From an uncultured virus (IMG/VR IMGVR_UViG_3300008113_000027) (lineage: Duplodnaviria > Heunggongvirae > Uroviricota > Caudoviricetes), in IMG/VR virus record IMGVR_UViG_3300008113_000027: a DNA stretch of 64,000 nucleotides; one strand, given 5' to 3'. The first letter of the stretch is position 1. Each line of letters begins with the position of its first letter. The notes below the pieces were generated by a model. The model did not search any database, was not told the DNA's origin, and saw nothing but the letters and a program-made list of their open reading frames with translations. The translations under genes were made by a program, and so were the position numbers. Positions 41,195 through 64,000 of this stretch are shown one piece after another.

Positions 41195-41282
41195 AACATC
41201 ACCTGTAAAGAAAATGATGGCAAAAGGGTTCAGATAAAGGTAACGGGCTCCTACCTACCCTGAACAAGATGTTTTATTTAAT

Positions 41283-41388: not shown

Positions 41389-41414
41389 TTTTTTAACTTT
41401 AAAACAAACACAAT

Positions 41415-44481: not shown

Positions 44482-47400
44482 TCATTCTCTACTGTCTGGA
44501 TTTTTAATATCTTTAAGTAAAGGAAATCTTTTATTTAAAATTTTATTAATTTGTTTATCAGGCACTCCTTGTTCTTCAAGTTCTGCTCTTAATACAGCTC
44601 TTTTACCCTCTAATATTTTATTAGCTTTTTTAGTATCATCAAAATACCAATCATCATAATGAGTTTTTTCAAATTGCATTTCCATTTGTTTTGAAAATCC
44701 AAAATAAGAATCTCTAACAATAGAAGGTAATGCAATTTTATAAAATGCATTTGCTGTTTTAGAATCTCCTGCATTAATACCTCTTGTAATAATATCATTA
44801 CCTTCTACCCATTCTTGAGTTGCACCTACAAATTTAGTAACATCATTAAAAAATCTAATAATTGGTTGCTCACTTACTAAATTAGTCCATATTTCAGGAG
44901 TAGCATACATATTAGAAGATGCTAATACTTGTAATGTTCTATTTACAATTAAGTTATGAGCAATTCTTTCTGGTGAATCTTCTTCATCGTCATCATCCCA
45001 AAACATACTTTTAGCAATAAGTGATAATGCAATCCAAGTAAGTTGTAATGACATCTCAGTTACCAATGCTCTCATGTTTTTCATATCTCTTTCAGTAAAT
45101 TTACCTTCACCAAGTTTACCTTGTTTTATAAGTTTTTCATAACCTACAAATTCATTCATTACTTGTTTACCTGTAAATGTACTACCTATAAAATTTACAG
45201 GCATACCTATCATTTTTCTTGCTATTGCTTTTCCAAGAAATGCATATTCACCTAAAGTGCTTAAATTACTTCTTACTCCTGTCCTTTTACCTATAAGATG
45301 ACCTGTTGCAAAACCTACAGCAGCTCCTAATAATGGACCACCAAATCCCCAACCTACTATACCACCCATTATACTTAATGATGCTTTAGTATGTGACCTG
45401 TATCTACCTTTATAACCTTTAACTCCTAACTCTACATCATCTCTTTCACTAGCAAATCTTGTATAAAGTTGAGAACCAACCCAAGTTTTAAACATCATTA
45501 ATGCTTTACCCATAGTACTTGATTTAGCCATCATACCTCTAAGGTTATCATAACCTAAACCATGTGCCATTCCAATAGCTTGAGATGTTTTAGTTTTAAA
45601 TGAAGTAAAAGCTTCTCCTTGTCCTAATTCCCAAGTTTTAATATTTTCTTCAGTTCTAAATTCAGGTAATAATTTACCATTTATATCCATTGCATCCCAA
45701 GGATTAGATTTTTGTCCATTTTTACCTATAATTTCAGTATCAAACATAACTGAAAGCATTAGTGGAGTTTGATTAAGATACTCTGTTCTTTTATTAATCT
45801 CCATTGGAGTAAACTTATCTAAAACATCTAATGAAGTTTTAACAGATGCTTTTTGTAATTCATTAGTAGAATCTTGAAGTATATTATATCTGTCAACTAA
45901 TACTCTTAGTTTTCTTGAACCTTGAGTACTCCTATTAGTATTACCTGTTACGCTTTTAAATAAAGAACCTTTAACAATATTTAATGCTCTATAATAATGA
46001 TGAGGTTCAAAGTGGTCACCATTAGCAGCAATAATCATATTAGCTATTTGACCCTCCATGTAGTTAGTAATACCTGAAGATAAGTTATAACCTAATCCTA
46101 AATATCTAATGTAATTAAATAAGTTTTCAAATGCTGCACTTGCAGATACTTGTTTACCTAAATTAGCTTTTATTTTTAATAACTTATTTATTTCATTTTC
46201 ATCTTTTGAATCATTAATCATTTCATTGAGTTTTTTATTTAACTCTTTGTCTTTTTGAGATAATATTCTTCCTGATATAAGATTACCTATTTTATCTTTT
46301 AATGTTTTAGAGTCAACATTTTCAGAATCAATTACACCAAATGCTTTTGCATCTCTATTACCAAGTATAACTCTATTAAACCAATCTTCCATTTGAGTAT
46401 TAGCTCTTGTTCTTAATCCTTCTGTTTGTCCTTGTTGAGAAAAAATATTAGTTACTCCTATACCTTGTTTATTAGTTTTTGGTTTTTGTATTTGGGTATA
46501 ATGATTCTTCATCATTTCCATATAAGGTAATAACTCTTGTCTTGCAGTATACTCAGCAGCCATCATATTATAGTATCTGATTAATTTAGGTAAATCAGTA
46601 GAACTATCTTGAATTATATCTGCCATTACTGAATTTTCTAATATTTTACCAACAGGTATTCTTTCACCATATTTAGCAATTAATGCTTCATAAGTAGGAG
46701 CAATGTTAGTTTTTTCACTAATTAAATTAAGAAGACTTGATGGTAATTTATATACATCAATAGTACCATTTCTTCTTATTTTTAACTTACCCATACCTGG
46801 TAAGTTATTAGCTTTAATTAATTCCATTGTCAATAAATCATTTATCCTGGATTTATTATTGTTTAAAAATTCAGCATTTACTGTTGGCTCTGTTTTACCT
46901 GTAATAACATCTTCATTTTCAAATGATATAGAACTTTGAGGATTTATACCAAATCCACCCCTTACTCTATCATAGAAATCTACTAAAGCATTCCATAGTT
47001 TTTTATACAATGAAATATTAGGGTCAGATAATATTTCTCTAAATGTTTTTTGTACAGTAGGTAATGAATTTGAAAAGAGTTGTTCTTGTACTTCAGTAGG
47101 AAATGAATTTAAAATAGTAGTCATTTGTTCTTGTACTATTTGATAGTATTCATAAAGGTCTTTATTTTTTTCAATTTGTTCAAATTGTTTATCATAATAA
47201 CCAGTAGATTCTCCTTTACCAACAGTTACATATCTACCTGACTTATCTTGAGATACTGATTCTGCTTTATATCTTCTTGGAACACTAATGTTGTATTCCA
47301 TACTTGAATTTACAAATTTATTTCCTATTTGTACATCACCATAATAAAAGTAATCGGCACCTGTAAATGGACTTTTTGCAGCTTCATTAAACATAATATC

Positions 47401-50400
47401 TGCTTGTACATTTTCACTTAACTGTTCAAAAGTATCTACTCCATTTTCTTCTAATGCCATTTGTCTATTGGCTTCTTTCCATACAAAATATTTTTTAATC
47501 TGTTTAATTTGTTTAGCTACTTCTTCTTTGTATGCTTGTTCACTACCTAAGTTTTCAATAAGTTCTTTTCTATGGTTATCATCTACTTCATCAAAATATT
47601 CATCAGCTAAATCAGGAAATGCTTCTCTAACTTCTCTAAGTCTTCTTATATCAAACACTAATACATTTTCTCTATACCATTGTTGTCTTTCTTGATAAGC
47701 TTGCTTAAGTAGTTTATTTTTTGCTTGTTCATCTAAACCAGATGTTCTAATAAGTCTTAATTGTTCTTTAAAATCAGCTTGTATAGTTGCTCTTGTATCA
47801 AAAAAGTCTTGATTATATCTGTTTACAAGTCTTCCTGTATTTCTACCCATTGATTTTTGAAAGAATATATCAAAAGATGGATTAGTAAAATTAAGGGCAC
47901 TTAAAACTGCACCCATACTCCTTAATGCTTTTTCAGCTTTAACAAGAGCTTTATTATGTTTTTCTTCAAATTGTTTAGCTTTACTTATTTTTTCAGCAAA
48001 TATTCTTTGTGTTATATCCATCATAACTTGTGGAATAACATTATTAGCTGATATAGTTTTACTTGGGTCCATAATCATCATATCTACCCAACTAATATCT
48101 CCTATTGGTGCAGTAAGATGTTTGTAAGAAAGGTCTTCTGAATATAGTTGTTTAATAGTAGGATGACTATTAATTATATTCTCTAATGCTTTCTTTTGTT
48201 TTTGTTCTAATTGAGTTTCATAACCTGCAAATGCTTTAGATAAATTTTCAAAGAAGTCAATAGTTTGTTGAGGTAATTGCATTTTACCATCAGCATCAAA
48301 GATTTCTTCTTCAAAAAATATTGGATGACTTGTAATAGGGTCATTATCAAGAGTAACTTTTTTAGCATTAAAACTCATTGCTTTGTAAAAGTTAATAATT
48401 CTCTTGGCTTCATTAATATCATTTACATTTTCTGACTCAAGTAAAGTTTGTAATCTTTGTAAATCTTGTTGAGCTTGGAATTTTAATTTACCATAACTAT
48501 ATCCTGATTCAGTATCTATTATATCATTTTCTAATTGGTCTAATCTTTCTTGTAGTTGATTTTCTTTTCTTGCAAAAGATAATGCTTCTTCTTTTGATTC
48601 AGCATCTTTAATCATAGCTTGAAGATTAGCAATCCTATCTTTAAGTTTAGACCTTAATGATTTTTTGTAACTAAGTACTTTATCAAAATTAGTAATTACT
48701 TCATCATCTAATGCACTATCAGTTTCTATTCCAGCTTCTTCTTTAGTTTGCTTCTGCTGTTGATTTGCTGCATACTCTGCTGCTAAATCATCAAAGTTAA
48801 ATTCATCATCTACAAACTCATCAACATCTGATTCTTCTTTAGGGTCAAATGATTTATTAGAATCTACAAACTCTTTAAATCCTTTTATATCATCTTTACT
48901 TCCTAATATATGAATTTGTTCAGGTTCAAATACTGTTGCAAATACTAATTCTTCTTTATTTGCTAACTCTTTCCAATCATCTAATGCTTTTTGATAACTA
49001 TTTTCTATATCTTCCAATTCTTCTTTAGAAAAATCACTAGGGTCAATATCTGGAAATTGTGGTTTAATAGCATCCATATCAGCTCCAGGTTCTTTTAAAT
49101 AAGTAATAAACCCATCAGAATCTTTTACTTGTCTATAACCAGAAGCATCTATAGCACTCATAAAAATTCCATGACTATATTTCATTGGAGTTTTTAAATT
49201 TAAAATACTTGCAATTTTAAATCCTTCTTTAGTATAATAATTTGGGTCTTTACTAAAAAAAATACCATCATCTGCTCCTTTACTTAAAGATTGTTCAGAT
49301 GGTTTATTAAATTTATCTCCTATAAATTTTTTAAATGTTGTATGATAAACAATATCTTTTACTTGACTATCAGGAAAGATAGTATCTAAGTATTGAGAAT
49401 ATTGTTGAGGAGTTCCAATAGAAGATAATTCAGAATTATTATTAAATAGTTCTTTTACTCCTGGTTTTATTTCTTTTGGTTCAAATGATTTATCTTGAGA
49501 TGGAGCAAATAAAGGTTCAACAGGTTCATTTTCTAAAAACTGTTGATTATATTGTTCATACTCAAGATAATTCTTTTGTTCTTCTAATACATTAGTAGCT
49601 ATATCAAATGCTTGTTCATATAAACTTGTACCTTTTTTAAATCCTAAATATTTAAACAAATGGTCTAAAAACTCTTCAAGATAGTTTTTATATTTTTTTG
49701 TTTCAATAGCTGGTAACTTTTGTAATTCTTTTATAAATTTAGAATCAGTAAATATACCTACTAAAAACTCATCTATATTTTCTAACTCATAACTTTTTGG
49801 TAAATTTTTTTTAGCATGTTCATAAAGTTTAAATAAATCTTCATTAGTATCATTACGTTGTCTTAATTGAAAATAACTTATAGAATGCAATACTTCGTGA
49901 AGTATTAATTTTTCAATAGTAGGAAATGGAGAGTTAGTGTATAATAGTATATTATTATCTGTTGGAAAATATGTTCCTGCTGCTGTTGCTTCACTACCAT
50001 CACTAAGTTTAAATTTACGAGCATTATTTGTTAATACAATATCTACATCATTAGCTTTTACATAAGGTAATAATTTTTCAGCAAGTTTATTCAATGGGTG
50101 ATTACTTTTACTAATTTCAAGTAATACTTCAGATGATTTTCTTGTATTTGAATTTTTAAAGTAAGATGCTTTAGCTACTGTACCTACTGTTATACCAGTT
50201 GTTTCTGCTGCATTAAATAAATAATCTTCATCATATTCTAATCCTGCTCTTTTAGCATCCCTCATTTGAGTAAGTTTTGCTTCTTTTTCAATTTTTTTAG
50301 ATGTTTCTTTTTCTTCAATAGATTCTCTTATTGTTGAAATTTTATCTATTTCTTTAAATACTTTAGTATTAGGATATACTTTAGTTCCTTGTTTGTTTTC

Positions 50401-50589
50401 CAAAAATAATTTTTCATTCCAACCTTCAACATTACTAAAGTATTTATCTTTAGCTTGTTGTCTAAGTTCAGAATGTAAAGTTCTAAACTTACCTAAATCT
50501 TTTACATTAAGATATTTATCAATAACACCTTTAGTTTTAAGGTATGATTTAGCATTAGCCTCTGATGTTTTAAATGGTTTACAGCTCAT
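44482..50589 (-). CDS. Giant virion cargo (polyvalent) protein with zincin HExxH and ART-like domains
   Basis: 2035 aa; LHEVLH...EF; VYH..GIFFS..LNLKTP..DG..VFEPEQI; Gly-rich hydrophobic segments near the C-terminus. Confidence 0.75.
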   Translation of the reverse strand: MSCKPFKTSEANAKSYLKTKGVIDKYLNVKDLGKFRTLHSELRQQAKDKYFSNVEGWNEKLFLENKQGTKVYPNTKVFKEIDKISTIRESIEEKETSKKIEKEAKLTQMRDAKRAGLEYDEDYLFNAAETTGITVGTVAKASYFKNSNTRKSSEVLLEISKSNHPLNKLAEKLLPYVKANDVDIVLTNNARKFKLSDGSEATAAGTYFPTDNNILLYTNSPFPTIEKLILHEVLHSISYFQLRQRNDTNEDLFKLYEHAKKNLPKSYELENIDEFLVGIFTDSKFIKELQKLPAIETKKYKNYLEEFLDHLFKYLGFKKGTSLYEQAFDIATNVLEEQKNYLEYEQYNQQFLENEPVEPLFAPSQDKSFEPKEIKPGVKELFNNNSELSSIGTPQQYSQYLDTIFPDSQVKDIVYHTTFKKFIGDKFNKPSEQSLSKGADDGIFFSKDPNYYTKEGFKIASILNLKTPMKYSHGIFMSAIDASGYRQVKDSDGFITYLKEPGADMDAIKPQFPDIDPSDFSKEELEDIENSYQKALDDWKELANKEELVFATVFEPEQIHILGSKDDIKGFKEFVDSNKSFDPKEESDVDEFVDDEFNFDDLAAEYAANQQQKQTKEEAGIETDSALDDEVITNFDKVLSYKKSLRSKLKDRIANLQAMIKDAESKEEALSFARKENQLQERLDQLENDIIDTESGYSYGKLKFQAQQDLQRLQTLLESENVNDINEAKRIINFYKAMSFNAKKVTLDNDPITSHPIFFEEEIFDADGKMQLPQQTIDFFENLSKAFAGYETQLEQKQKKALENIINSHPTIKQLYSEDLSYKHLTAPIGDISWVDMMIMDPSKTISANNVIPQVMMDITQRIFAEKISKAKQFEEKHNKALVKAEKALRSMGAVLSALNFTNPSFDIFFQKSMGRNTGRLVNRYNQDFFDTRATIQADFKEQLRLIRTSGLDEQAKNKLLKQAYQERQQWYRENVLVFDIRRLREVREAFPDLADEYFDEVDDNHRKELIENLGSEQAYKEEVAKQIKQIKKYFVWKEANRQMALEENGVDTFEQLSENVQADIMFNEAAKSPFTGADYFYYGDVQIGNKFVNSSMEYNISVPRRYKAESVSQDKSGRYVTVGKGESTGYYDKQFEQIEKNKDLYEYYQIVQEQMTTILNSFPTEVQEQLFSNSLPTVQKTFREILSDPNISLYKKLWNALVDFYDRVRGGFGINPQSSISFENEDVITGKTEPTVNAEFLNNNKSRINDLLTMELIKANNLPGMGKLKIRRNGTIDVYKLPSSLLNLISEKTNIAPTYEALIAKYGERIPVGKILENSVMADIIQDSSTDLPKLIRYYNMMAAEYTARQELLPYMEMMKNHYTQIQKPKTNKQGIGVTNIFSQQGQTEGLRTRANTQMEDWFNRVILGNRDAKAFGVIDSENVDSKTLKDKIGNLISGRILSQKDKELNKKLNEMINDSKDENEINKLLKIKANLGKQVSASAAFENLFNYIRYLGLGYNLSSGITNYMEGQIANMIIAANGDHFEPHHYYRALNIVKGSLFKSVTGNTNRSTQGSRKLRVLVDRYNILQDSTNELQKASVKTSLDVLDKFTPMEINKRTEYLNQTPLMLSVMFDTEIIGKNGQKSNPWDAMDINGKLLPEFRTEENIKTWELGQGEAFTSFKTKTSQAIGMAHGLGYDNLRGMMAKSSTMGKALMMFKTWVGSQLYTRFASERDDVELGVKGYKGRYRSHTKASLSIMGGIVGWGFGGPLLGAAVGFATGHLIGKRTGVRSNLSTLGEYAFLGKAIARKMIGMPVNFIGSTFTGKQVMNEFVGYEKLIKQGKLGEGKFTERDMKNMRALVTEMSLQLTWIALSLIAKSMFWDDDDEEDSPERIAHNLIVNRTLQVLASSNMYATPEIWTNLVSEQPIIRFFNDVTKFVGATQEWVEGNDIITRGINAGDSKTANAFYKIALPSIVRDSYFGFSKQMEMQFEKTHYDDWYFDDTKKANKILEGKRAVLRAELEEQGVPDKQINKILNKRFPLLKDIKNPDSRE

Positions 50590-50608
50590 TGTTGTTATTT
50601 ATTTATAG

Positions 50609-53600
50609 TTAAATACCACATTCATTATTTTCTGAAGTCCAATCTTCTTTAGGTTCAAATGATTTACCTCTTGTGTCAAATTTAAGAAAAGATTCAAATT
50701 CTGCACCTTCATTTTCTTGTTTTAATACATTACTTGCATTCTTGTTAGATACAATTACAGCTTTATGTCTTGGTCTTGTAACTGCTACATATAAAGATTG
50801 GTTTTTAGTTTTAATAGAAGCATCTTGTACACCAAGAATATTGTCTTCCATTACATACACATTGTTATAAGTAGAACCTTGAGATTTATGTGAAGTAATG
50901 GCATAACCATAATCTGATTTTACATGTTGGTCTTCATTACCCCAATACACATCCCAAGAACTACCACCTACTTTAAATGCATTGTCTGCATTATTTTTTT
51001 GTAGTTCAGCATACTTTTGTTTTACTTTAGGAGAAAGTACTTGTATAGTAACCATTTCTCCACTTTCATTTTGAACTCTAAGAGAATAGCCTGGTAAAGA
51101 TACAACACTTGTTGAAAAGTCATTATTAAGTTTATTGAATTTTATATTTACAGGAGTAGAATTTAATACAACATATTGTTCTCCATTAAAAATATTAGCA
51201 CTAGCTACTAATGATTCTTCTTTAGTATCTTCATTAATAAGTATTTCTCCTTTATTAAATTCATTAGTATTTCCTTCACCCCAAAGAATTTGTCTTGCAA
51301 GATTATTCATACTATCTTTTTCAGCATTAGTGAAGCAAATAATCTTAGTGTTTTCTTTATCAGATTGTAAGTCTTTAGTAAGTTGAGGAACCATTGATGT
51401 TTTAGTTTCAAACAAAGTACCTTTATTTTTCTTTTCATCAAACTTATTTTTTCTATCTGTAATAACTCTTAATTCAGGAGTAGCACTTTCTACATTTGCT
51501 GCAATGACATCACTTAATGCTACAATAGGAGAATCTTCACCTTGACGCATTCTTTCTGTAAGTGTAGCAGTATATTCAGGTTTAGTGTTAGCAGTAAATG
51601 ATACTGAATCTTTATTTTGTAAACTAGCATTTTCTTCAATAGGTGGTAATTGTACATTATCACCCATAAAAATAACTTTTACATTTGGATTTCTAGAAAA
51701 ATTAATAATGTCTGACACCATACTTTGAGTAAGCATTGAACATTCATCAATGATAATTATATCAGCATTATAAAATGGTGAGTTTTCTTTTTTAAATTTA
51801 GGGTCTTTTTCAAATACTGATGGATTATTTCTTTTAGGTTTTAACCCTATTGCTGATGCTATAGTTTTTACTTGAACTCCATTACCCATAGATAGCTGAA
51901 GTATTCCTTTAGCTTTATGAGATATAGTAGCTGCTGCAACTGACTCTCCTTTAAGACCTTCTAATATTTTTTTGATAATAGTAGTTTTACCTGTACCACC
52001 TCTACCTTTAAGTACAAATACTTGTCTTCCTCTATCTTTAACAAAACTATTAAGTTTTTCTATTGCTTTAGTTTGTCCAACATTAGCATTTACTCCAGGA
52101 AACAATTGTACTTTTTCTCCTGCTTTTGATTCATTAATCATATTATCTGTTTCTGCAAGTTCATTTTCCATATCTGCTAATGTACTATCACTCATTCCAA
52201 TTTCTATTTGAGATGCTGTTGGTTCAGGTTCAACTTCTTTTTTTCCAATAGCTTCTAATAGCTCATCCATATCAGTAGCATTTGTTTCACTTAACAATGC
52301 TTCTACATAATCCTGATGTGCAGAAAAGAATTTTAATTGGTTATCAGTAACACTTGCTTCATTTAAAAACTTAACTATTTTAGGATAACCATTAAACTGT
52401 GAATAATCTATTTCATCTGGAAATGTTACTTGTTCTGGATTATCATTAAGTAATTGATTTTCACTATTAATAAGTGCAGCTAAATTAGTTTTAACTTTAC
52501 TATATACTTCTTGATTTAAATCTGTTTGAGTAGTAGGTGTAAACAAATCTAATATCTCTTTTTGAGTAACTCTTGAACCAGTATTTACATTTAAAACTTT
52601 ATTATCTATTTTTACATACTCTTGTTTATTAAATATTTTAGTTTCAAAGTTATTAGCTTTAGCATAAGCTGCTAATACTTTATTGATTTGAGTTTCATTA
52701 GTTTCTACTTTATCACCAGCTTTAGCATTGTGAATAACTTCACCTGTACTTGGATTATAAGTATAAGTAAATTGGTCTACTTTAGTAATAAATGATTTTT
52801 CAGATGTAGTACTAGGTTGAGTAGTTATATTATTAACAACTTCATTATTAGTTTGAGTAGTTGTAGTAGGTTTAGAAGATTGATTTATTGGTATTACAAA
52901 ATTTTTATCTTGTACTAATTTATTTCCTGTTATATATTGATATGCTTTATTAAAATATTCAAACAAATTACCTCCTATTTCATCTTTAATATTATAAATA
53001 TCTTCTGGTGTAACATTTCCTTGCTGTGCATTTATTTGTTCCCAAGCTTCTGCACCACTAACATTAGTGTTTATATAAGATTTATTACCACTATATATTT
53101 TTCTAATTTCATTTAATCTTTCTGTAAAAACACCTGTAGGTTTAGGCATCTGTATTTCTTGAATAGCAACAGATTGAGTAGTTGTAGTAGGTTGAGTTTG
53201 AGTAGGTTTACTATCTTCAATAAGTTGGAATATATTTTTAATAGCATCATCTGTAAGAGTACCTTCTTCTATACCAATAGCTTCTAATACTGATTTGATA
53301 AAGTTTCTTAACTTATCCATCAATGTAGTATTAGAAGAACCTATTTTAATTTCACTCATTGCCTGTTGGAATTCAGGTTGAGTCATAATCATTTCAATAA
53401 ATTCTTTAATATTTACAGTACCATAAAGTATTCTTTTTTCTTCTTTATCAAATCCTACTTTTTCACCTTGTTGAAGTCTTTCAAACTTTTCAAGCATTGA
53501 TTTATACTTAGCAGCATACTTACCTGTACTCAATGCAGTTTGTGCCCTTTTATATAATACAATAATTTCTCTTGCTGCTTTAGCTCCAGGTACACCATCT

Positions 53601-56600
53601 TTAGGTTCAAGTTGACCTTTTGAATCAGTATGATTAAGTATAAGTTGGTCAGTAACTGAATGTACAGTTTCTTTTAAAATAGTTCTTGCAAGCATTTCAT
53701 CAGATGCTTCTTTAGCATATTGTCTATCAATTTGAATTACACCATTTTGATAAGTACCATTACTTTCTAAACCATCAACTACTTTGATTACAGTATTAGG
53801 GTCAACCTTAGATATAAGTTGTTTAAGAATTGTAGTTATGTTAGCAGGAAGATTATTTGAATTAACTATATTTCTAAGAATAGTAATAAAATTATCTTGA
53901 CCTAATCCAAATCTTTCTTCATTTATAAGTTTAGAAACTGCATCATCATTTTTAGGTTCACTAACTGGTGGTGGAGCAATATCTCTTACTCTACCTTTAC
54001 TTATTTGTCTTTGTTGTTGATTAGGATTTATATCATAAGCAAATACTTTTTGTCCTTGATTACCTTTACTAACTGCTACTGCTAATGGCTTATATTCATT
54101 TCCCATTTTTATCCATAGGTAATCTTTACCTTTAACTCTATGTGCAATAAAGTTAGGAGCATTAGTTGAATTATAACCTGCATTAGTTATAGTTATATTT
54201 GAACTTAATACTTTATTAGCTTTACTTTCTTCCATTAATAGTTTAGGAAGTGAAGTAGGATTATTTCTTGCAAATTGAATTGCAAAATCACTTGGTGCAT
54301 TTTCTTTAAATCCAAATATATTTGTAGTGTCATAGTTTATATCATTAAGTGCTTCAGTAAATCCCATTTGTTCTAAATAACTTATAGGAATAAACTTAGC
54401 AAATTGAGTAGCTTCTTGTACACCACCTTCTAATAATGCATAGTTAATTAAATCTTGTGCAAGTTTTTTAGCACTATATATTTCTCCATTAAATGCAGGG
54501 AGTACAAGGTCAGTACCTAATAATTCTAATAATGCATTATTTAATCCATCTTCATCAAAGTTAGCACCAGCAGTATTCTCATATAAAATCATAGATGGTT
54601 TGCCAGTATAATCAATATCATAGGCAAATCTTTGTATGAGTTTATTACTTTTAAGTTGAGGAAATTTATTTGCTACATCAGATAAATATTTTGCCAAAGA
54701 TACTTTACCAGCTTTTTTATCATCATACATTAATCTATATCTTTCTTCAGTAGCTGTTCCTGATTTAATAAGATTTTTCTGAGTCATTACTGCATTAAAA
54801 TACTTCTTAATTTCTTTAAGTACCATGTGTTGCTTCTCAGCTTTTTTAGCTTCACTTGCTTCACTCTTACTTACTAATTCCATTACTTCAGTTATAGCTT
54901 TATTAATAGAATCTTTATTGTATGGAAAATGTTTTTCCCATAAGTTATTAGCAGTAACTAATGCATTTAAAGATACAGCACCAATTGATGTTGTAGGTTT
55001 AATCATTAACTGATTTGTAATAGGAATAAATCCTTCTTTTATTTTTTCATCATATTCTTTTTTAGTTAAATTGTCAGTCATTAAATAATCACCTATTAAT
55101 TGGTCAGCATTTCTAATAGAGTCATTACTTACTAATGCTGTTACAGTTTTAATCTTTTCTCCTATTTCAGGAATTGATTTACCTAATCCTTTAGAGTCTG
55201 TATTAATTGCACCCTGTACACTTCTTAATGCTAATCCATATTGTTTAAGCATTAAAAATCTATTTAATGCTATAATTTGTAAATGATTATTAGTTTTATC
55301 CTTTGTTGATTTTTTAACTAACTCATTATACATTTCAGATGTAGTGAGTTTACTACCATACTCACTATCAAACTCATAAGCATCTGGTGCATCTCCTAAT
55401 ATTTTTAATGTATTTGGTTCAAAATACTTTTCATAAAGTTTTTGTATTACTTCAGCTTCTGCATTTGGATTATAACCTTTTATGTTAGAAGTAGCTTTAC
55501 TCATTTCAACTACATAATCTTTAATGATTGGTTGAGATAAGAAAAGGAATGATATAGAATTACCATCTTCTCCTTTATCAAATCCTAACATACACAATAC
55601 TTTATCTACATCCATTGTATATGAGTTAAGATTTACTTTACCCATTACTTGTAACTTCTCATTATCTACTGCAATGTTTTGTCTTTCAGATAACACTTCT
55701 GCAATAGGTCTTTGAAGATTATTATAATCATTAAGTATTTGTTTTAATTCAGGATAGTTTTCTGTTTGTCCTTCAAATACTTGAAGTCCTGTTGCTTCAT
55801 CACTTTTAAGTAATTCAGTAAGATTATCTAATACAGTATCATTTCCATTTAAATCATTTAATCTTGCAATAAAATAATCTTTTTTAGATACAACTTTAGC
55901 ATTAGCTTCTCCTAATTTACCATTAGTGCTAATTGAACCAAATGACATTTTAAAAGGAAATCCATTGTTCATTAACTCTAATTGTTTACCATTAGCTTTA
56001 GCTTGTTCAAATAATGAATGAGAAGTAACATCTAATGAGTATGCACCTGTACCTATTTTACCACTTGCACCTAATGCCATTTTTTGTTTCTGATATTCAT
56101 CAGACAATGGGGTAAAATATTCATTAGTACTTGAATTAACATCATCAATCATTTTTGCTTGGTCTTCAGCATAATCTGTTGATAATATAGTATTAATTTT
56201 CTTTTGTACAGAAGGTCTACTATTACCAAATACAGCTAAGTGTATATTAACAAGCTTATTTTGAAGAAGTTTTTCTTTGATGTTTGATACCTTATCTCCT
56301 GCTTTAATAGGTCTAAATTTACCATCTTCATCTTGGGTATGCCATAATTGATAACTACTTAGTTTATCAACGTCAAAGTCTTGACCCATTTGTTTAGTAA
56401 AGTTCTTAGGGGTAATAATTAAATCACCATTTTGAGCTGGAAGAAATCCTGCAATAGTAACCTTAGAACCTGACATGTGACCTGATGTAGGAATCCTAAA
56501 TGTAATCATGTCTAACAATTGTTTGTCAAACATTTTTTCATTTAGTTGAAATCCTTTGTCAGTTTTAATTACATACTTATAATTTTTTCCATCTTTATCT

Positions 56601-59600
56601 AGTTCTAATAAATCAATTAACTTACCATCATTATCCCTAAACTTAGATGCAACTAATATTTGAGCTGATTTAAGATTATTTTTTTCATCATAATTAGCTG
56701 CTTGTAGTTCTCCATTGAATTCATTATTCAACCAAACTATTTGACTTTTGTCTATACCTGTAAAATCATTTTGAATTTTAAATCCTTCTTCAGAACCTGC
56801 AACATAAGCATTACCAGGTAATTTTACTTTAACAAGTCTGTTATTTACAACAGCATTAAATAGTGCTTCAATTCTATTTGAATTAGCACTCATCCATAAA
56901 GGAAGTTTAAACTTATAATCTACTATTGTTCCATCATTACCATAGACAAATTCTATTTCTAATCCATCTATATCTTGTTTAGACCAACCTCTATCTAATG
57001 CTTCTTCTCTTAAAAGTTTTTGAAGTTTAAGTGCAGTTTCTTTTACATCAATAGGTTGATTAGTTTTTTCATCAATACCTAATTCACTATATAGTTTTTG
57101 TTTCTTTAAATTGTAAAGTTCTATAAATGTTTCATTATATATCTCTTGAAGTTTTTTACCTGAGTAAGATGTACCATCCATTATAAATCCAGACTCATCC
57201 ATCATACCATTACCAAATAAAACTTTAGTAAGCTGAGAACCTAAAGTAGTTGTGTCCTCAGTTCTTTTACCTGATTTAAATGGTACATCTTGTTGTATCT
57301 TAAAATCTTTTCTATTTAAAACTAATGATGCACTTTCAAGTTCTTTTTGTGTTATGTTTTTAATTTTACCTGTACTATCAAACATTTTTAATGGAGCACT
57401 TAATGCTCCTACTTTATTTGCAGTTTGATATGATGCTCTTACAAATCCACCTTTTTGAAAATCCTGTAATGCTATTCTAAGTTTATCTAATTCAGTACCT
57501 GCTGTCATTTGAGGAATAAGAGGAAATGAAGATGATTTAATATACATCATTCTCATTACTCCTTGTTCTTTATCATATATTTGACCAGTATATACAGGCT
57601 TAATAGGTTGAAGCACTTTAGCAAAAATTTCTTTTTGAGCATCAGTCATTTTTTCAAAAGGAATATTTTCAGTAAATATTTTTTCAGCTTCTTTTAAATC
57701 TTCATCTGTAAGTGAAAGTACTTTATCAGAAGTTTTACCCATTTGTTTAAGTACATGTAAGTGTTCTTGCCATGTAGTATACTCTTGAGCATCAGTAGAT
57801 TCTATATCAAAATATCCTGCTGATTTAGGATATTGTTCCATAAACTTATCATACTGTATTTGTTTTTCATCTGGATTTTCAATACTCATTATTCTACTAT
57901 ACCCATCAGCATCAAACTCTTTACCATCTAATACTTTAGTAAGGAATCCAATGTTTTGAGAAACAGAAACTCTATCTGCTAAAAAGACTTGATGATAAGT
58001 TTCATTTTTAGATTCTGCTAATTTAGAACCAGGAGCTATCATAGCTGCTAACCTTTTACCTACATTGATAAAAGTTTCTTCTGATTGTTTAGTATAACTT
58101 TCTTTAGAGTCAGCTTTATAATATAAAGCAGGGTCACCAATGATAGTCATATAAGCATTAGCATTACCAATCATTTGATTGATAACATAATCAAATGCAA
58201 TTACATTTAATTTAGTATCATTTGTTAATTCATTCTTTTTGTCAGTATCTGTAACATAAGCAGTATCAAAAAATTTAAGTTTTAATTCACCACTTTCATC
58301 TATTGTGGCTAACTCATTATCTTTCCATACTTTCATTTTATTATTTACAAGTTCATTAAGATACTTGTTTATTTCAGGATATATTTGAAGTTTAAGTTCA
58401 TCATTAAGTTTATCTATAGTAAAGGTACTTGAGTTTAAAAGAGAGTTTAAACTACCTTCCCACATAGTGCCATCATTTAATTTATAACTAACTTTTAAAT
58501 CATTAAGCTTGGGTAAAAACATTAACATTTTTTTACCTTTATCATAACCTTTTATATTAGTAGTTTTAGGTGTTTTTGTTTTTTTATTTCCATTAGAATC
58601 AACAATTCTTTCTATTTCAGGTAATACTAATTGATTAAATAATAATCTTAATACTTCAGGTTTAGCTTCAAGTGTTTTTGTTTCTTCGTTATAAGTATAA
58701 TAAGATATATCATTTAACTTAAACATTGGTGCTTTTACAGTAACCATAGTTGACTTATCTGACATAGTTGGAAATAACATAGATGCTATTCTCATTGGAA
58801 ACTCTACATTATCAACCCTATGAGTTACTTTAGTACTACCTTGTTTCATGTCCATAAACATTGCTAACTTAACAAGTTCATGGTCAGCATCTGCTAAACT
58901 AGTAATACCATTATCTTTAAATATTTTTTTACCTGCTTCTTTTAAAGCATTTAAATCTAAGTGTGAAATACTAAATGCATTAGGTAATGCACTATTATCT
59001 AACCATTGTAACCATGCTGCGTGTTTAGAAAATGCAAGACTACCTAATTGTTCTCTAATATCTCCAGCATTAGTTTTTAAATCTACAAATCTATCAGTAA
59101 CATACTTGTATGCAGTATAACCATAAATAGATTTTTTACCTGACCTAAATGAACTTGTAGCTACATTTTCTACATATTTAGCTTGAAACCTAGCTAAACC
59201 ATTTTCAATTGCATTATCTCTAAATGGATGATTACCTTCAAGTTCAGTTGGTATAATCATACTGTCACTATTAACAACAGTTTTTAACCAGTTAGCAAGA
59301 ATACCAATGGGTTGATGAGCTTTATCTGTACTTGCAAAAAATTTATCAGGAGTAAGTTTTGTATTTTTATCTACATAGTATTGACCACTAAGTATTCTAT
59401 GTATTGCATTAGGATGCATATCAATACCAAATGATTCTAACCAAGTTAATACTGTGTCAACTGCTTCAGCTTGTTCATCAATACTCATGTTTGAGTATTC
59501 CATAATAGGAACATTCTTACCTTCTATTGGAATATTTTTAACTTTTAATGCTCTACTAATAGCAGGAGTTGTAGGTTTACCAAGTGTATATTTTAATTTA

Positions 59601-61123
59601 CCATTTATTTTTTCAACTCTTAATTCTTTAGTATCATAACTATCTTCAATCTTATTATTGACTGAATATTTTTTTACTTCTCCTTCTTTAAAATCATCAG
59701 GATTAAGACCTAATGTTTTAATTGTTTTTCCATCTTTTACTTCTAAATCTTTATCTTCACTTATTACTTTTTTTTGTAAATCTAAAAGACTTCTTGTAGC
59801 TGATGATTTTAAATCTTCAGGTGAATTATCAAACCAAGACTGGTGTTCTTCTAACAATCTTAATGCTTCATTTTTATTTGCAAAGTATTGTCCTGTTTCA
59901 GCATCAGCATCTACTAAGTCAGTACCTAAAAATTCATTTCTCCAATTAGATAAAGTTTTTCTTCTAAGTTCTGCTGAATTAGTATTCATTACTTTTGCAG
60001 TAAGATTACCATCTTTATCAAATGAGTATTGTACAAAATGCATTGTTAGTGCATGATTACCCATTACATGTAAGAACTGATTTTTAACTTGACCATTAGC
60101 TTTTTCTAACCTATTTACAAATTCATTCATCCAAGGTCTTACATCAGCATTCTCTCTTAAGTGAGCTACAGCTTCATCAAAAGTAAATGACTTATCAGCC
60201 ATCAATGCAATAACAGTATCAAACACAGTATCAAATTCTACAAATGCAGGAATACCCATTACAGTATTCATAGGATTACCATCCTTATCTGTAAGAGGAA
60301 TACCTCTCATCAACATTCTTAGTTCTTTTCTAACTGAATTCTTTGGATTTTTTTCTAAAGATGTTTGAGAATAATTTTCATCTCTTTCACTATTTGTTTC
60401 TTCAAAATCTGTAATACTATCTTCTGATGATTCTTCTTCCATATCTGCTATTTTAGAAGTATCATCTGCTTCTTCTACTTTTGTTTCAGTAGTACCATCT
60501 TCATTAGTTATAGTGTTAACTTTAATATTAGCAAATTTATATAGCTTCTGTAATCCTACATCAGCAATCATATCAAAATTATCTTTAACTAATTTTATTT
60601 TTTCTTTAGCTACTTGAATTTTCTTAAGATTAAGTTGAACTACTTTATCATCAGGTTTACCAATTAAATTTAATTTTTCTGCAAGTTTATCAAGAGTAGC
60701 TTCATAACCATCTAACATACTTTCAAGTTCTTCTTTCATAGAAGCCTTAAGAGTTCCTTCATTTGTTATTGATTCTGCATTTACATTAAAACTTTTTGCA
60801 GCAGTTTCAGATACATAATTAGCAAAGTAATTAAAATGATTATTATCTAATCCAGCAATTTTCATTAACTGTTTAGTAATTTCATTTCTACTTTCTTCAC
60901 TTATCTCTTTTGGTTCAAAAGATTTTTCATCTTCATCTAATTGAACATTATATTGATTTAAGAATCCAAGTAAAGCATCAGCTTGTTTCATTACAATATT
61001 ATAAGCTTCAATAGAATTTTGTTCTGTTTGAGCTGCCTTATAATTATTAAATGATGCTTCTACTAATCTTTTAAATTCCTGTTCAGAATATTCTTTACCA
61101 TTATAAGTGATAGTACAAATCAT
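50609..61123 (-). CDS. Virion DNA-dependent RNA polymerase (crAss-like) fused to SF1 (RecD/Dda-like) helicase
   Basis: FRIPT and GQDFDVDK (56366-56380), AVDNEK; C-terminal GRGGTGKT, DECSM, GDNVQLPP, HKSQGSTY, YVAVTR. Confidence 0.88.
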   Translation of the reverse strand: MICTITYNGKEYSEQEFKRLVEASFNNYKAAQTEQNSIEAYNIVMKQADALLGFLNQYNVQLDEDEKSFEPKEISEESRNEITKQLMKIAGLDNNHFNYFANYVSETAAKSFNVNAESITNEGTLKASMKEELESMLDGYEATLDKLAEKLNLIGKPDDKVVQLNLKKIQVAKEKIKLVKDNFDMIADVGLQKLYKFANIKVNTITNEDGTTETKVEEADDTSKIADMEEESSEDSITDFEETNSERDENYSQTSLEKNPKNSVRKELRMLMRGIPLTDKDGNPMNTVMGIPAFVEFDTVFDTVIALMADKSFTFDEAVAHLRENADVRPWMNEFVNRLEKANGQVKNQFLHVMGNHALTMHFVQYSFDKDGNLTAKVMNTNSAELRRKTLSNWRNEFLGTDLVDADAETGQYFANKNEALRLLEEHQSWFDNSPEDLKSSATRSLLDLQKKVISEDKDLEVKDGKTIKTLGLNPDDFKEGEVKKYSVNNKIEDSYDTKELRVEKINGKLKYTLGKPTTPAISRALKVKNIPIEGKNVPIMEYSNMSIDEQAEAVDTVLTWLESFGIDMHPNAIHRILSGQYYVDKNTKLTPDKFFASTDKAHQPIGILANWLKTVVNSDSMIIPTELEGNHPFRDNAIENGLARFQAKYVENVATSSFRSGKKSIYGYTAYKYVTDRFVDLKTNAGDIREQLGSLAFSKHAAWLQWLDNSALPNAFSISHLDLNALKEAGKKIFKDNGITSLADADHELVKLAMFMDMKQGSTKVTHRVDNVEFPMRIASMLFPTMSDKSTMVTVKAPMFKLNDISYYTYNEETKTLEAKPEVLRLLFNQLVLPEIERIVDSNGNKKTKTPKTTNIKGYDKGKKMLMFLPKLNDLKVSYKLNDGTMWEGSLNSLLNSSTFTIDKLNDELKLQIYPEINKYLNELVNNKMKVWKDNELATIDESGELKLKFFDTAYVTDTDKKNELTNDTKLNVIAFDYVINQMIGNANAYMTIIGDPALYYKADSKESYTKQSEETFINVGKRLAAMIAPGSKLAESKNETYHQVFLADRVSVSQNIGFLTKVLDGKEFDADGYSRIMSIENPDEKQIQYDKFMEQYPKSAGYFDIESTDAQEYTTWQEHLHVLKQMGKTSDKVLSLTDEDLKEAEKIFTENIPFEKMTDAQKEIFAKVLQPIKPVYTGQIYDKEQGVMRMMYIKSSSFPLIPQMTAGTELDKLRIALQDFQKGGFVRASYQTANKVGALSAPLKMFDSTGKIKNITQKELESASLVLNRKDFKIQQDVPFKSGKRTEDTTTLGSQLTKVLFGNGMMDESGFIMDGTSYSGKKLQEIYNETFIELYNLKKQKLYSELGIDEKTNQPIDVKETALKLQKLLREEALDRGWSKQDIDGLEIEFVYGNDGTIVDYKFKLPLWMSANSNRIEALFNAVVNNRLVKVKLPGNAYVAGSEEGFKIQNDFTGIDKSQIVWLNNEFNGELQAANYDEKNNLKSAQILVASKFRDNDGKLIDLLELDKDGKNYKYVIKTDKGFQLNEKMFDKQLLDMITFRIPTSGHMSGSKVTIAGFLPAQNGDLIITPKNFTKQMGQDFDVDKLSSYQLWHTQDEDGKFRPIKAGDKVSNIKEKLLQNKLVNIHLAVFGNSRPSVQKKINTILSTDYAEDQAKMIDDVNSSTNEYFTPLSDEYQKQKMALGASGKIGTGAYSLDVTSHSLFEQAKANGKQLELMNNGFPFKMSFGSISTNGKLGEANAKVVSKKDYFIARLNDLNGNDTVLDNLTELLKSDEATGLQVFEGQTENYPELKQILNDYNNLQRPIAEVLSERQNIAVDNEKLQVMGKVNLNSYTMDVDKVLCMLGFDKGEDGNSISFLFLSQPIIKDYVVEMSKATSNIKGYNPNAEAEVIQKLYEKYFEPNTLKILGDAPDAYEFDSEYGSKLTTSEMYNELVKKSTKDKTNNHLQIIALNRFLMLKQYGLALRSVQGAINTDSKGLGKSIPEIGEKIKTVTALVSNDSIRNADQLIGDYLMTDNLTKKEYDEKIKEGFIPITNQLMIKPTTSIGAVSLNALVTANNLWEKHFPYNKDSINKAITEVMELVSKSEASEAKKAEKQHMVLKEIKKYFNAVMTQKNLIKSGTATEERYRLMYDDKKAGKVSLAKYLSDVANKFPQLKSNKLIQRFAYDIDYTGKPSMILYENTAGANFDEDGLNNALLELLGTDLVLPAFNGEIYSAKKLAQDLINYALLEGGVQEATQFAKFIPISYLEQMGFTEALNDINYDTTNIFGFKENAPSDFAIQFARNNPTSLPKLLMEESKANKVLSSNITITNAGYNSTNAPNFIAHRVKGKDYLWIKMGNEYKPLAVAVSKGNQGQKVFAYDINPNQQQRQISKGRVRDIAPPPVSEPKNDDAVSKLINEERFGLGQDNFITILRNIVNSNNLPANITTILKQLISKVDPNTVIKVVDGLESNGTYQNGVIQIDRQYAKEASDEMLARTILKETVHSVTDQLILNHTDSKGQLEPKDGVPGAKAAREIIVLYKRAQTALSTGKYAAKYKSMLEKFERLQQGEKVGFDKEEKRILYGTVNIKEFIEMIMTQPEFQQAMSEIKIGSSNTTLMDKLRNFIKSVLEAIGIEEGTLTDDAIKNIFQLIEDSKPTQTQPTTTTQSVAIQEIQMPKPTGVFTERLNEIRKIYSGNKSYINTNVSGAEAWEQINAQQGNVTPEDIYNIKDEIGGNLFEYFNKAYQYITGNKLVQDKNFVIPINQSSKPTTTTQTNNEVVNNITTQPSTTSEKSFITKVDQFTYTYNPSTGEVIHNAKAGDKVETNETQINKVLAAYAKANNFETKIFNKQEYVKIDNKVLNVNTGSRVTQKEILDLFTPTTQTDLNQEVYSKVKTNLAALINSENQLLNDNPEQVTFPDEIDYSQFNGYPKIVKFLNEASVTDNQLKFFSAHQDYVEALLSETNATDMDELLEAIGKKEVEPEPTASQIEIGMSDSTLADMENELAETDNMINESKAGEKVQLFPGVNANVGQTKAIEKLNSFVKDRGRQVFVLKGRGGTGKTTIIKKILEGLKGESVAAATISHKAKGILQLSMGNGVQVKTIASAIGLKPKRNNPSVFEKDPKFKKENSPFYNADIIIIDECSMLTQSMVSDIINFSRNPNVKVIFMGDNVQLPPIEENASLQNKDSVSFTANTKPEYTATLTERMRQGEDSPIVALSDVIAANVESATPELRVITDRKNKFDEKKNKGTLFETKTSMVPQLTKDLQSDKENTKIICFTNAEKDSMNNLARQILWGEGNTNEFNKGEILINEDTKEESLVASANIFNGEQYVVLNSTPVNIKFNKLNNDFSTSVVSLPGYSLRVQNESGEMVTIQVLSPKVKQKYAELQKNNADNAFKVGGSSWDVYWGNEDQHVKSDYGYAITSHKSQGSTYNNVYVMEDNILGVQDASIKTKNQSLYVAVTRPRHKAVIVSNKNASNVLKQENEGAEFESFLKFDTRGKSFEPKEDWTSENNECGI

Positions 61124-61131
61124 GTTAATGT

Positions 61132-64000
61132 TTATTTACAATCTTTAGTAATTGTTTTATTATCTATAAGCTTTTGGATAGCTTCATCTACATTTGAAGA
61201 CTCTGCAAATATATTAAAAAATTCTTCAAATCCTTCTAAAGGTGTTTGTGTTTCTTCAGTTTTTTGCTCAAGTTTTTCTTTAAGATTATCATCTAATTGT
61301 TTAGCAAGTTCAGTAGACTCATTACTATTTTCAGATAATAATTTTTTAGCATCTGCTACTTTTTCTTCTAAAGTATTACCAATGAATTGAAATCCTTGAG
61401 CTTCAAGATTAGGTATTTCTTTTGCTAACTGTTCATCTGTAAATGTATTAGCAACAAGATTACTGAGTTGTTTATTCTCTTCTTTAGTTTCAGGTTTAGG
61501 ACTACTATAATTATTTGAATTTCTATTGGGTGACTCTACTGGTTTAAATTCAATGTTAGGTTGAAACCTTGTAATAAAATGAGGATTTTCAGCAGTACCA
61601 ATGTTTTCTAATACAACATCAGTTTCTGTATCTTTCATTGAGTGTTCAAAATAATTAAAAAAAGGAGAATCTATAATAGACCCATCTTCATCTACCAATC
61701 CCATTTTAAGTTCATTAGAATCTAATGAAGGATTTATAAGTTTGTTTTTTGTATTTAATCTTTGTTCAGATAAAAACTTTGCAAGTTTATCTTTATGTTT
61801 ATTAAAATCTTCTTGACTTTCAATTACAAATTCTTCCCCACCTTTAACCCCAAATAATATTTTTGCTTTATAATCACTTACATTAAAATTCTTTATTTCA
61901 ATATATGGTTTTCCATTTTCTACATTTTTAGGATTATTTAATCTTATAAATTTAGTTATAAAATTATCTATATTTTCATTATTAAATTGAGCTTTTAAAT
62001 TAGATTCTAATGTTCTCTTTGTTTCTTTATCTAAACCTAATGAGAGAGCATTCATTATTGACTCTACTAACTCTTCACTTAATGTAGGAAACTTAGTATT
62101 GTATATTTGATGACCTCCATCTTCTGACCAAGCTCTTACATCTAAAGTTGCTCCTAATTTTAATGCTTTTTGTATTCCATCTTCATTAGCATTTTTAATT
62201 TTAAATTTAATATAAAATTCTGCAATAGGCATTATAACACTTTTGCTTCCATTACTTACATATACATGACTTACTTGATTATTATTATCTACAATACCCT
62301 TAACAAGTACAGCATTTTTATCTATACTTCTAATTCTTTTAGTTTGGTTGTTAGGATATTTTTTAATCATCCCAGCAGTCTTACTTGTTATTTCAATTTT
62401 TGGAGTACCACCTTTCTTTTCAGTATCTATAAGATACTTTCTTAAAGCTCTAAGGTCAGCAATTTGTTTTGTTTTTTGTTCAGCATTTAAACTATTATCT
62501 GTACTTATTTTAGTTACATCGTGAATATAAGCAATAGGACTTCCATCAGGATGTTTAACAGTAAGAGGAGCAGCATCATAATATGCTTGAGAATTTAAAA
62601 AATTCATTCCTTCTTTTTCTACATTTCTTTTTACCCATTCTCCAAATTGAATAAGTTTAGGTTTACCATTTTCATCAAAAAGAACTTGTCCATTTTCATC
62701 TCTATCTTTAATAAGTATAGTGTTTAAATTGTTTACACCTAATTGTACAGATAATTGAGTACCAGGTTTAAACTTATCTCTTCTTAATAAGTCTTTAAAC
62801 TTATCAATATTATCAATATCTTCTTCTTCAAATGTTTCAATTAATGTTACTATTTCTCCTTCTTCAGTTGTTACCTTTGTAAATCTTGCTGAAAGATTAG
62901 TAGAGTTATAACCTAATCTAAATACTGCATCACCAAGAAGAGGTATAGGTACAAATACTGTATCACCAGATGCAGTTTCAACAGGTTTCTTACTTGTGTT
63001 ATTTTCTAAGTTTGATTTATTAACTTGTTCTTTAAATTCTTTTTCTACAAGTTGTTGTTCTTCAGCAAACTGCATTAATGAGTTTGCTATTTCTTTTCTA
63101 CTTTTAAATACTTTATCATATACTTCTTTGTAATTTTCAATAGGCATTCCATTTAATTCCCACCCAAGAGCTAATGTATCAAACAATATTTTTGCTTGCT
63201 CTTTACTTGAATTTACAATATAATCTCTGATAAACTTTTCAAAAGTAGGTTCAGAACCAAGTTCTTCTTCAAGTGCAATTATATAATCACCCACTTGTTC
63301 TTTAAGTTGATTCTTTGCTTCAGGACTAAGTCTATCACTTATTTCTTTAGGGTCAAAACTTTTAAGGTCATCTTCTACATAAGCATCACTATCTTCTTTA
63401 GGGTCATTACTTAATGGTATTGCAAACTTATATCTATTTGGAATTGACTTGTTTGGAATTACAACTAAATCAGTATTGTTTGAACCTTGTAGTCTTTTAA
63501 TTAATTCTAATTGTGCTTTAGCTTTTTCAGTTAATACTTCATCTACAACATTACCAAATTCATCTACAACTTCTTCAGTTTCAAGGTCAAAGTTTATTGA
63601 GTTCTGACCTGATGCATCTATTTGTTGTTTAATATCATTAGTAAAATTAATTAAGTCAGCATCAGTATTAGATTCAACAGCTTCTTCATTTAATTTATAC
63701 TGAGTTATTATTTCTTGAGCTACAGGTTTTTTAACTTTTAACAAACTTGCAATAAGATTCTCATTAGGTTTTTCTTTGTTAAGTTCTTTTTCTAATGTTG
63801 CTTTTTGTTGTTCATTAAGATTAGGATTATGTTTATCAATAAGAGTATCAAGTTTAGACTTAGTACCTACTAGAGGAATTTGAGGTTCAGGTTCTGACTC
63901 AATAATGTTATTTATATTTCCAGCAATTTGTGTTTTTTCATCAGTTACTGTACCTTCTTCATTTGCTGTTTCAGGAGTAACAACATCTGAAGTTTGGTCA
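61132..64000 (-). CDS. Giant virion cargo protein, C-terminal part (5' end beyond window)
   Basis: Frame of ORF 61132..63744 stays open to 64000 (checked by hand); directly upstream of vRNAP. Confidence 0.7.
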   Translation of the reverse strand, partial: DQTSDVVTPETANEEGTVTDEKTQIAGNINNIIESEPEPQIPLVGTKSKLDTLIDKHNPNLNEQQKATLEKELNKEKPNENLIASLLKVKKPVAQEIITQYKLNEEAVESNTDADLINFTNDIKQQIDASGQNSINFDLETEEVVDEFGNVVDEVLTEKAKAQLELIKRLQGSNNTDLVVIPNKSIPNRYKFAIPLSNDPKEDSDAYVEDDLKSFDPKEISDRLSPEAKNQLKEQVGDYIIALEEELGSEPTFEKFIRDYIVNSSKEQAKILFDTLALGWELNGMPIENYKEVYDKVFKSRKEIANSLMQFAEEQQLVEKEFKEQVNKSNLENNTSKKPVETASGDTVFVPIPLLGDAVFRLGYNSTNLSARFTKVTTEEGEIVTLIETFEEEDIDNIDKFKDLLRRDKFKPGTQLSVQLGVNNLNTILIKDRDENGQVLFDENGKPKLIQFGEWVKRNVEKEGMNFLNSQAYYDAAPLTVKHPDGSPIAYIHDVTKISTDNSLNAEQKTKQIADLRALRKYLIDTEKKGGTPKIEITSKTAGMIKKYPNNQTKRIRSIDKNAVLVKGIVDNNNQVSHVYVSNGSKSVIMPIAEFYIKFKIKNANEDGIQKALKLGATLDVRAWSEDGGHQIYNTKFPTLSEELVESIMNALSLGLDKETKRTLESNLKAQFNNENIDNFITKFIRLNNPKNVENGKPYIEIKNFNVSDYKAKILFGVKGGEEFVIESQEDFNKHKDKLAKFLSEQRLNTKNKLINPSLDSNELKMGLVDEDGSIIDSPFFNYFEHSMKDTETDVVLENIGTAENPHFITRFQPNIEFKPVESPNRNSNNYSSPKPETKEENKQLSNLVANTFTDEQLAKEIPNLEAQGFQFIGNTLEEKVADAKKLLSENSNESTELAKQLDDNLKEKLEQKTEETQTPLEGFEEFFNIFAESSNVDEAIQKLIDNKTITKDCK

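Follow-up and report, generated by a model that had tools for sequence, protein, structure and literature searches.

The heptapeptide KSF[E/D]PKE, of which five copies are distributed over the three giant cargo proteins of this phage, is a real, selected seam code. Our preferred reading, to which we assign a probability of about 0.5, is that the five peptides are cut sites used after ejection and most likely read by the zincin-fold domain located behind the virion RNA polymerase (vRNAP), in which KExxH stands in place of HExxH. The post-ejection cut would release the polymerase-helicase, an ADP-ribosyltransferase (ART)-like enzyme and other modules. Judged from sequence, cleavage of the seams by any protease is put somewhat above even odds and the KExxH domain as the reader at little over half of that figure; we infer the disulfides described below, the cut, its timing and its reader alike. 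The general idea that crAss cargo is cleaved is already in print as speculation. The present analysis adds an exact five-copy map, a mobile enzyme bracketed by the motif and evidence against the accessory zincin as a general reader.

The phage record is 85,714 bases long, with overlapping ends, and the window analysed here is its first 64 kb (64,000 nucleotides). On sequence grounds the phage is an Fpv3-like crassvirus, with matches to the capsid, ring and muzzle families (PF23898, E 2e-156; PF25731; PF24228; PF25702). Its nearest cultured phages are Flavobacterium phages of the Fpv1-4 type (37.6% identity in the polymerase core). The giant cargo genes lie three in a row on the minus strand and encode products of 1875, 3504 (vRNAP) and 2035 aa, the upstream gene (G000 61132-66759) extending beyond the window end. 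The DFDVD signature of the vRNAP stands at aa 1582 and the match to PDB 6VR4 has an E value of 7e-18. Homology to phi14:2 gp66 and crAss001 virion mass spectrometry (PMC10172136, in part) make the three proteins likely virion cargo. The features are collected in Table 1.

Table 1. Seam motifs, domains and cargo genes, in window coordinates
Feature	Position	Strand	Remarks
SNEPKE	10389-10406	-	aa 29 of a 367-aa acidic scaffold-like protein, between portal and capsid genes
B3, conserved C-terminal module of the 2035-aa protein	44485-48834	-	
KSFDPKE	48835-48855	-	aa 579 of the 2035-aa protein; precedes conserved module B3, which most relatives encode as a gene of its own
ART-PolyVal-like cassette	48856-49470	-	bracketed exactly by two motifs
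KSFEPKE	49471-49491	-	aa 367 of the 2035-aa protein; between zincin and ART-like cassette
Accessory zincin of the 2035-aa protein	49492-50202	-	HEVLH at 49885-49899; patchy among relatives
KSFEPKE	50645-50665	-	aa 3487 of the vRNAP, 11 residues from the C-terminus; tail beyond has Cys3502 (50618-50620)
Dda-like SF1 helicase, fused to the vRNAP	50714-52126	-	
Zincin-fold domain	53204-53968	-	vRNAP aa 2386-2640; KETVH (53660-53674) replaces HExxH; EFIEM at 53390-53404; candidate motif reader
Virion RNA polymerase body	54014-60904	-	DFDVD at 56366-56380; homologue of phi14:2 gp66 (PDB 6VR4)
KSFEPKE	60905-60925	-	aa 67 of the vRNAP; polymerase body begins directly after
vRNAP N-terminal 66 aa	60926-61123	-	Cys3 at 61115-61117; unmatched in relatives with fused genes
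1875-aa cargo gene, 3' part in window	61132-64000	-	sole cysteine is residue 1874 (61138-61140)
KSFDPKE	63343-63363	-	aa 1133 of the 1875-aa protein; directly precedes conserved second module A2
SNDPKE, degenerate tandem copy	63394-63411	-	aa 1117 of the 1875-aa protein

All five copies are exact and lie where the original prediction had placed them, as does the degenerate SNDPKE near the last copy; tandem seam copies before A2 are also present in L076, L084, L009, L043 and L005. The motif had been expected to be confined to cargo, and this was confirmed by a whole-genome scan of 81 ORFs of at least 80 aa (28,130 aa, shadow ORFs included): 5/5 exact copies fall in the three giant proteins and none in the 78 other ORFs, while composition predicts 0.0002 exact copies. 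Across 300 local shuffles, the most frequent 7-mer allowing one free position was seen twice in 299 cases and three times in one, against five times in the actual sequence. The cargo represents 26% of the ORF residues, and the confinement of 5/5 copies to it has a P of 0.0013 taken alone. The only matches with two mismatches, genome-wide, are SNDPKE and the scaffold-like SNEPKE, the latter absent from 3/3 orthologues and doubtful as a site. The scan found no copy in the major capsid protein. The 815-aa and 1757-aa presumed cargo proteins also lack it, which argues against a general loading tag; none lies between the polymerase, the zincin-fold domain and the helicase. When this proteome was scored with a profile of 24 sites from relatives, one of them shifted by a residue, the six cargo sites took ranks 1-4, 6 and 8; the scaffold-like SNEPKE came fifth and a primase site seventh. 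Mapping the segments onto relatives bore out the placement of the copies at module borders. The linkers had also been described as mostly acidic: this holds for four sites, with flanks of 23-35% D/E, and fails for aa 367, which is at background (15%). Asp-Pro self-cleavage was ruled out as the mechanism, since three of the five copies have E-P and relatives have Q-P, S-P or A-P.

Scans for relatives yielded 60 viral and 77 metagenome loci, in many of which a private peptide recurs at the same module borders, as anticipated for equivalent repeats. In close relatives the cargo genes are fused or split otherwise and the modules reordered with the border peptides retained; seam position thus stays constant while gene borders and module order change. 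The private versions include SYEPxEI, SxQPxEI, RESFSP, LAPVEL and NDMIxN. L084 carries S[YL][ED]PxE six times, before A2 (two), the polymerase, the ART cassette, the zincin and the last module. Its 5832-aa fused protein and the 6557-aa protein of L043 each have their own motif before A2, the polymerase, the ART cassette and B3. S[YNL][QS]PxE is found five times each in L009 and L043, DISAEPK twice in L078, LAPVEL twice in L010 and NDMIxN three times in Fpv3. E[ST]FSP occurs five times in the complete genome G003, where 5/5 genome-wide coding matches lie inside the cargo block (control matches, 0). In phi14:2, FTSPD at gp67:904 and gp66:101 forms an apparent seam pair, its position inferred rather than aligned; as the three phi14:2 proteins share 20 5-mers, the pair is suggestive only.

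The seams were compared in 79 loci possessing both main seams, of which 33 were kept at <70% core identity. The similarity between the A2 seam and the polymerase seam is 21.3 within a genome, a value reached in 0 of 100,000 permutations, and 16.9 between genomes, and the within-genome pairs beat acidity-matched windows in 27 of the 33 lineages. The own partner seam ranked first in only 11 of them, so that many relatives are without a clear motif. The B3 seam behaves likewise (20.3 within versus 17.4 between; n=27; 0/50,000), and the seam at the C-terminus of the polymerase gene gives a weaker signal (18.0 versus 16.6; n=30; 25/50,000). When 59 relative loci and the own block were scanned for repeats regardless of position, a signal clearly above shuffles appeared, among the matches listed, only for this genome, L004 and L005/L006; the seam signal needs the seam positions. 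The accessory zincin genes at L005:18205-21306 and L009:19730-21511 have a second repeated peptide before the zincin and before the cassette (VKYSKF twice in L005, Y-S peptides in L009), which differs from the core seam motif and may be another code that came in with the cassette.

The distribution of cysteines suggests how the cargo is held together. The 1875-aa protein has a single cysteine at its penultimate residue and the 2035-aa protein a single one as well, Cys3 (50581-50583, minus strand); the vRNAP has five, among them Cys3 and Cys3502. In a survey of gene junctions covering 87 dereplicated loci, cysteines stand on both sides in 63/69 junctions between the polymerase gene and the next gene. 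The junction on the upstream side of the polymerase gene has both cysteines in 3/5 cases when the upstream gene has an A2 match; when it has none, cysteines are missing in 62/71 and both present in 8, which look like further gene splits. Terminal cysteines at the splits of the cargo block are conserved across Crassvirales, and the rule also holds in crAss002, crAssphage ZA, phi14:2 and crAss001. Cysteines confined to the termini are found in phi14:2 (gp67 C1797; gp66 C3 and C2179; gp65 C3) and in crAss001 (gp47 C2339; gp50 C5 and C2404; gp49 C5), where gp47 is encoded on the opposite strand from gp50 and the terminal cysteines are still present. The three cargo proteins are likely joined head-to-tail by terminal disulfides in one chain of 7,414 residues, as far as their sequences indicate, and the N-terminal 66 aa of the vRNAP are likely a docking segment for the C-terminus of the upstream protein. 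In cyanopodophage A4, a gp27-gp26 disulfide (Cys1715-Cys5) is reported by cryo-EM (PMC12002296, in part); the ejection proteins are joined there, as proposed for this chain, from near a C-terminus to an N-terminus. A4 differs in that it is an unrelated phage with one link, and no seam motif or processing is described in the accessible part of that report. Two of the motifs lie just inside the predicted disulfide joints, so that a cut would free the polymerase even with the disulfides intact.

Could the motif arise without a processing function? It is quite unlikely that it is a DNA recombination socket or duplication scar of module shuffling with little function in the protein. In its favor, the ART cassette is bracketed as by a target-site duplication, here and in L084, tandem copies occur, and the same codons are used among the motif copies of 11 relatives in 199/265 cases against 159 expected (ratio 1.25, versus 1.05 for chance repeats). 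However, only G005 and L042 of these 11 are individually below p 0.05, and G005 is a sister of G004. In this genome the codons differ among copies, as originally noted, with codon identity at chance (mean of 3.0 nt differences versus 3.2 under free codon choice, P=0.40), serine codons switch between TCN and AGT, and the flanks of the five copies are unalike, in support of selection at the protein level. Without exception the copies are in frame and lie on the coding strand, in this genome and in the relatives examined. Copying may explain their origin, not their persistence: short stretches of DNA may be copied to give new motifs, which selection on the peptide then retains. A generic helix-start signal recurring for structural reasons is more improbable still. 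F-D-P-K-E-I resembles a helix-capping box that includes a hydrophobic staple. In three copies the next residue is Ile and a predicted helical module comes after, and aromatic-x-x-Pro is common across lineages. A generic signal would nevertheless match equally well between genomes, and the higher within-genome match largely refutes it as the sole cause; one copy, besides, has only an 11-residue tail after it.

HExxH occurs twice in the genome, once in the 2035-aa protein (HEVLH) and once in the 1757-aa protein. The original prediction saw in the motif either a maturation-protease cleavage site, a zincin being encoded in the same block, or a shared capsid-loading or ejection signal; under the first alternative the HEVLH zincin would cut the motifs in virion maturation. 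This zincin does have an intact HExxH in the same chain, adjoining a motif, and orthologues in the motif-bearing G004 (64%) and L084 (47%; the longer contig of a fragmentary relative). It is nevertheless an unlikely cutter, being matched in 1/5 relative records and in neither of the near-complete G003 and G005. G005, a close relative with a 92% identical capsid and overlapping record ends, keeps five motif copies nearly identical to those of G004, and HExxH is absent from every one of its cargo and structural ORFs; in G004 itself, the HEVLH-type zincin is flanked by Y-S peptides and not by the seam motif. The idea of this zincin as general cutter is consequently weakened, and attention moves from a dispensable accessory enzyme to the conserved KExxH/HExxH domain. 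Maturation timing became doubtful as well: the capsid has no copy, the scaffold-like copy is kept in 0/3 relatives, and the terminal cysteines suggest that the chain stays whole in the particle. The sole HExxH of G005 belongs to a small stand-alone gene missing from this genome; such a gene (178 aa; G005, G003, G006) was rejected as the missing protease since it is not shared, only a stop-interrupted 58-aa match being found here. That match, at 41269-41463 (+), corresponds to the start of the G005 ORF and is either a remnant or shared non-coding DNA. Prohead proteases such as T4 gp21 and phiKZ gp175 cut one short Glu-containing motif in many packaged proteins. The present case differs from these by its longer, lineage-private motif, the lack of a capsid copy, a likely post-ejection timing and the fact that no prohead or maturation protease family is matched in the genome. 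An intact cis-encoded protease is not found in every motif-bearing genome (G005 has no HExxH in its cargo), unless KExxH is active.

The domain behind the polymerase is the only protease-fold unit common to the motif-bearing close relatives. It is assigned a zincin fold on the basis of sequence profiles and a predicted model, its canonical HExxH zinc motif being replaced. The alignment-based model (pLDDT 87) is nearest, weakly, to minigluzincins (Foldseek probability 0.97, E 0.3) and the profile matches selecase/jannalysin (E about 1e-3), the phi14:2 structural protein S0A048 (at 1421 aa as long as gp65; E 4e-6), N4-like vRNAPs (E 5e-5), the N4 vRNAP domain (weak, E 0.05) and podovirus core proteins. 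Among 71 non-redundant copies, the first ligand position is His in 58, Lys in 10 and Glu in 3, which weakens the cleavage reading. The general-base Glu and the second His are present in 71/71 and the third-ligand Glu in 70/71, even in the 13 without the first His. Every Lys version has a new Glu 3 or 4 residues past the third ligand (8 and 2 cases), the +3 Glu occurring in 0/58 His versions; Lys and the added Glu on the third-ligand helix have the appearance of a salt bridge in place of the metal site, i.e. a pseudo-enzyme. In a quick tree, this genome forms a clade with five Lys relatives and one unscored member; L056 and the Glu pair each fall apart from it. An independent Lys lineage, L115, has ENLSP/EYLSP at three seams. 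Since seams are kept in Lys lineages, either cleavage persists with the variant site or the domain has a binding role alone. In a co-evolution test, motif similarity tracks the zincin domain no better, at significance, than other modules (partial r 0.07, p 0.08). Just after the domain, in the region of window positions 53044-53203, a 102-aa stretch shares 97% identity with aa 5459-5560 of the L043 polyprotein, although neighbouring modules are at 37-44%, which suggests, from sequence comparison, a recent exchange.

Peptides that are never cut and serve as binding tags, docking in the zinc-less groove of the zincin fold, in the portal or in a loading factor, and either ordering the chain for packaging and ejection or holding modules inhibited, offer a possible but less convincing explanation. 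The first His of the only shared protease-fold domain has been lost repeatedly, with compensating charge, in at least three separate branches, and its loss goes with no weakening of the motifs (mean motif score 25.6 for Lys, n=7, and 28.5 for Glu, n=2, against 19.5 for His, n=35; few independent events). The homologous region of N4 is needed for encapsidation without processing (PMC5512222, in part), and other podoviruses have this fold in their internal core proteins. Binding at a one-to-one ratio is, on the other hand, harder to reconcile with five or six sites for a single zincin-fold domain, a number that would fit turnover better, and the general base is invariant. A motif kept 11 residues from a terminus, next to the terminal cysteine, and on both flanks of a mobile enzyme likewise fits release rather than tagging. 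Under the preferred reading of post-ejection cleavage, the predicted pieces would be residues 1-1132 of the 1875-aa protein; its residues 1140-1875 tethered to vRNAP 1-66; vRNAP about 74-3486; the vRNAP tail tethered to residues 1-366 of the 2035-aa protein; the ART-like enzyme (374-578); and a module of residues 586-2035.

Related systems offer precedents on both sides. Three large virion proteins, a DFDxD polymerase and a zincin domain are likewise described for phi14:2 gp67/gp66/gp65 (10.1101/2020.03.07.982082, in part) and crAss001 gp47/gp50/gp49 (PMC10172136, in part); this phage differs by its KExxH zincin, its polymerase-fused helicase and its motif-bracketed ART-like cassette. The accessible parts of these two descriptions name no cut site or seam motif. 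The authors of the phi14:2 study supposed cleavage of fused crAss cargo and a possible activation of the polymerase by the zincin, giving no sites in the text available (10.1101/2020.03.07.982082). According to the same source, recombinant full-length gp66 shows activity on single-stranded DNA, and almost all of its residues are ordered; this already active and ordered state counts against the cleavage reading. In polyvalent proteins, the MPTase was proposed to free domains after injection by autoproteolysis (Iyer et al. 2017, PMC5512222, in part). They share with this phage unrelated enzymes strung in virion-delivered proteins, including an ART-PolyVal-like cassette here, and the accessible part of that article names no linker or recognition site. 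The N4 vRNAP is packaged unprocessed with its C-terminal domain retained (PMC5512222; PMC13434306, both in part), a counter-precedent for cleavage given its HExxH domain. This homologous domain (C1) is located just behind the virion polymerase, as here; N4 differs in having an unrelated T7-type polymerase and a C-terminal domain that autoinhibits (PMC13434306, in part). In the accessible part of a phi24B preprint, SSP linker motifs of a similar kind are proposed in a processed capsid protein that is unrelated to this cargo (10.64898/2026.04.10.717836). A search of main-text literature found neither seam motifs nor terminal disulfides described for the cargo of crassviruses.

A broader proposal, which we regard as tentative and rather doubtful, is that crassviruses inject a single disulfide-chained super-polyprotein (7,414 aa here) and that its lineage-private cut code is read by a His->Lys zincin, a new catalytic variant, the code doubling as a socket into which effectors such as ADP-ribosyltransferases are plugged and from which they are later released. 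The seam map provides exact candidate sites and fragment sizes, including phi14:2 FTSPD (gp66:101, gp67:904) and Fpv3 NDMIxN. It would also explain how injected enzymes are added or swapped without breaking the ejection chain. Activation of crassvirus vRNAP by proteolysis, a question left open in the phi14:2 structure paper, is now directly testable.

The 2035-aa protein, composed of the HEVLH zincin, the ART-like cassette and B3, has the layout of a polyvalent protein (MPTase and unrelated enzymes). The cassette itself has no Pfam match; Atlas feature matches of 0.91-0.92 to PF18760 clusters were obtained with a recognition score under the mark of the tool, and of the H-Y-D triad the His is present and Phe stands at the expected Tyr. 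It is found elsewhere in L043 and L084, again beside their own motif, and KSF[E/D]PKE joined to the start of the cassette occurs in no other viral contig except a copy of this phage. A shared cassette frame, opening with [IV]KPGVxELF and, in the cases checked, closing with GFKxF, was observed at 48856-49470 (-) and in L009, L104, L030, L059, L063, L091, L116 and L141; it holds differing passengers (ART-like, P-loop domain), and L104 has two such frames in tandem. The 1757-aa protein (G000 69218-74491; L001:9219-14492, minus strand) contains the second intact zincin, HEGTH, in an insert that varies among relatives, and has no seam motif.

Several other genes of the window were recorded. No tRNA gene was found within the 64 kb. 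A class II aminoacyl-tRNA-synthetase-like gene (PF00152; 16346-17197, minus strand) lies upstream of the terminase and is unmatched in G005. In the replication arm, a ThiF/E1-like gene (33177-33935) stands beside a weak JAB match (32090-33175) within 30916-34410 (+), a region 89-93% identical in G005 that looks, by its sequence, like a ubiquitin-like conjugation module. A spore-photoproduct-lyase-like radical SAM gene (39625-40488, plus strand) is 96.5% identical in G005.
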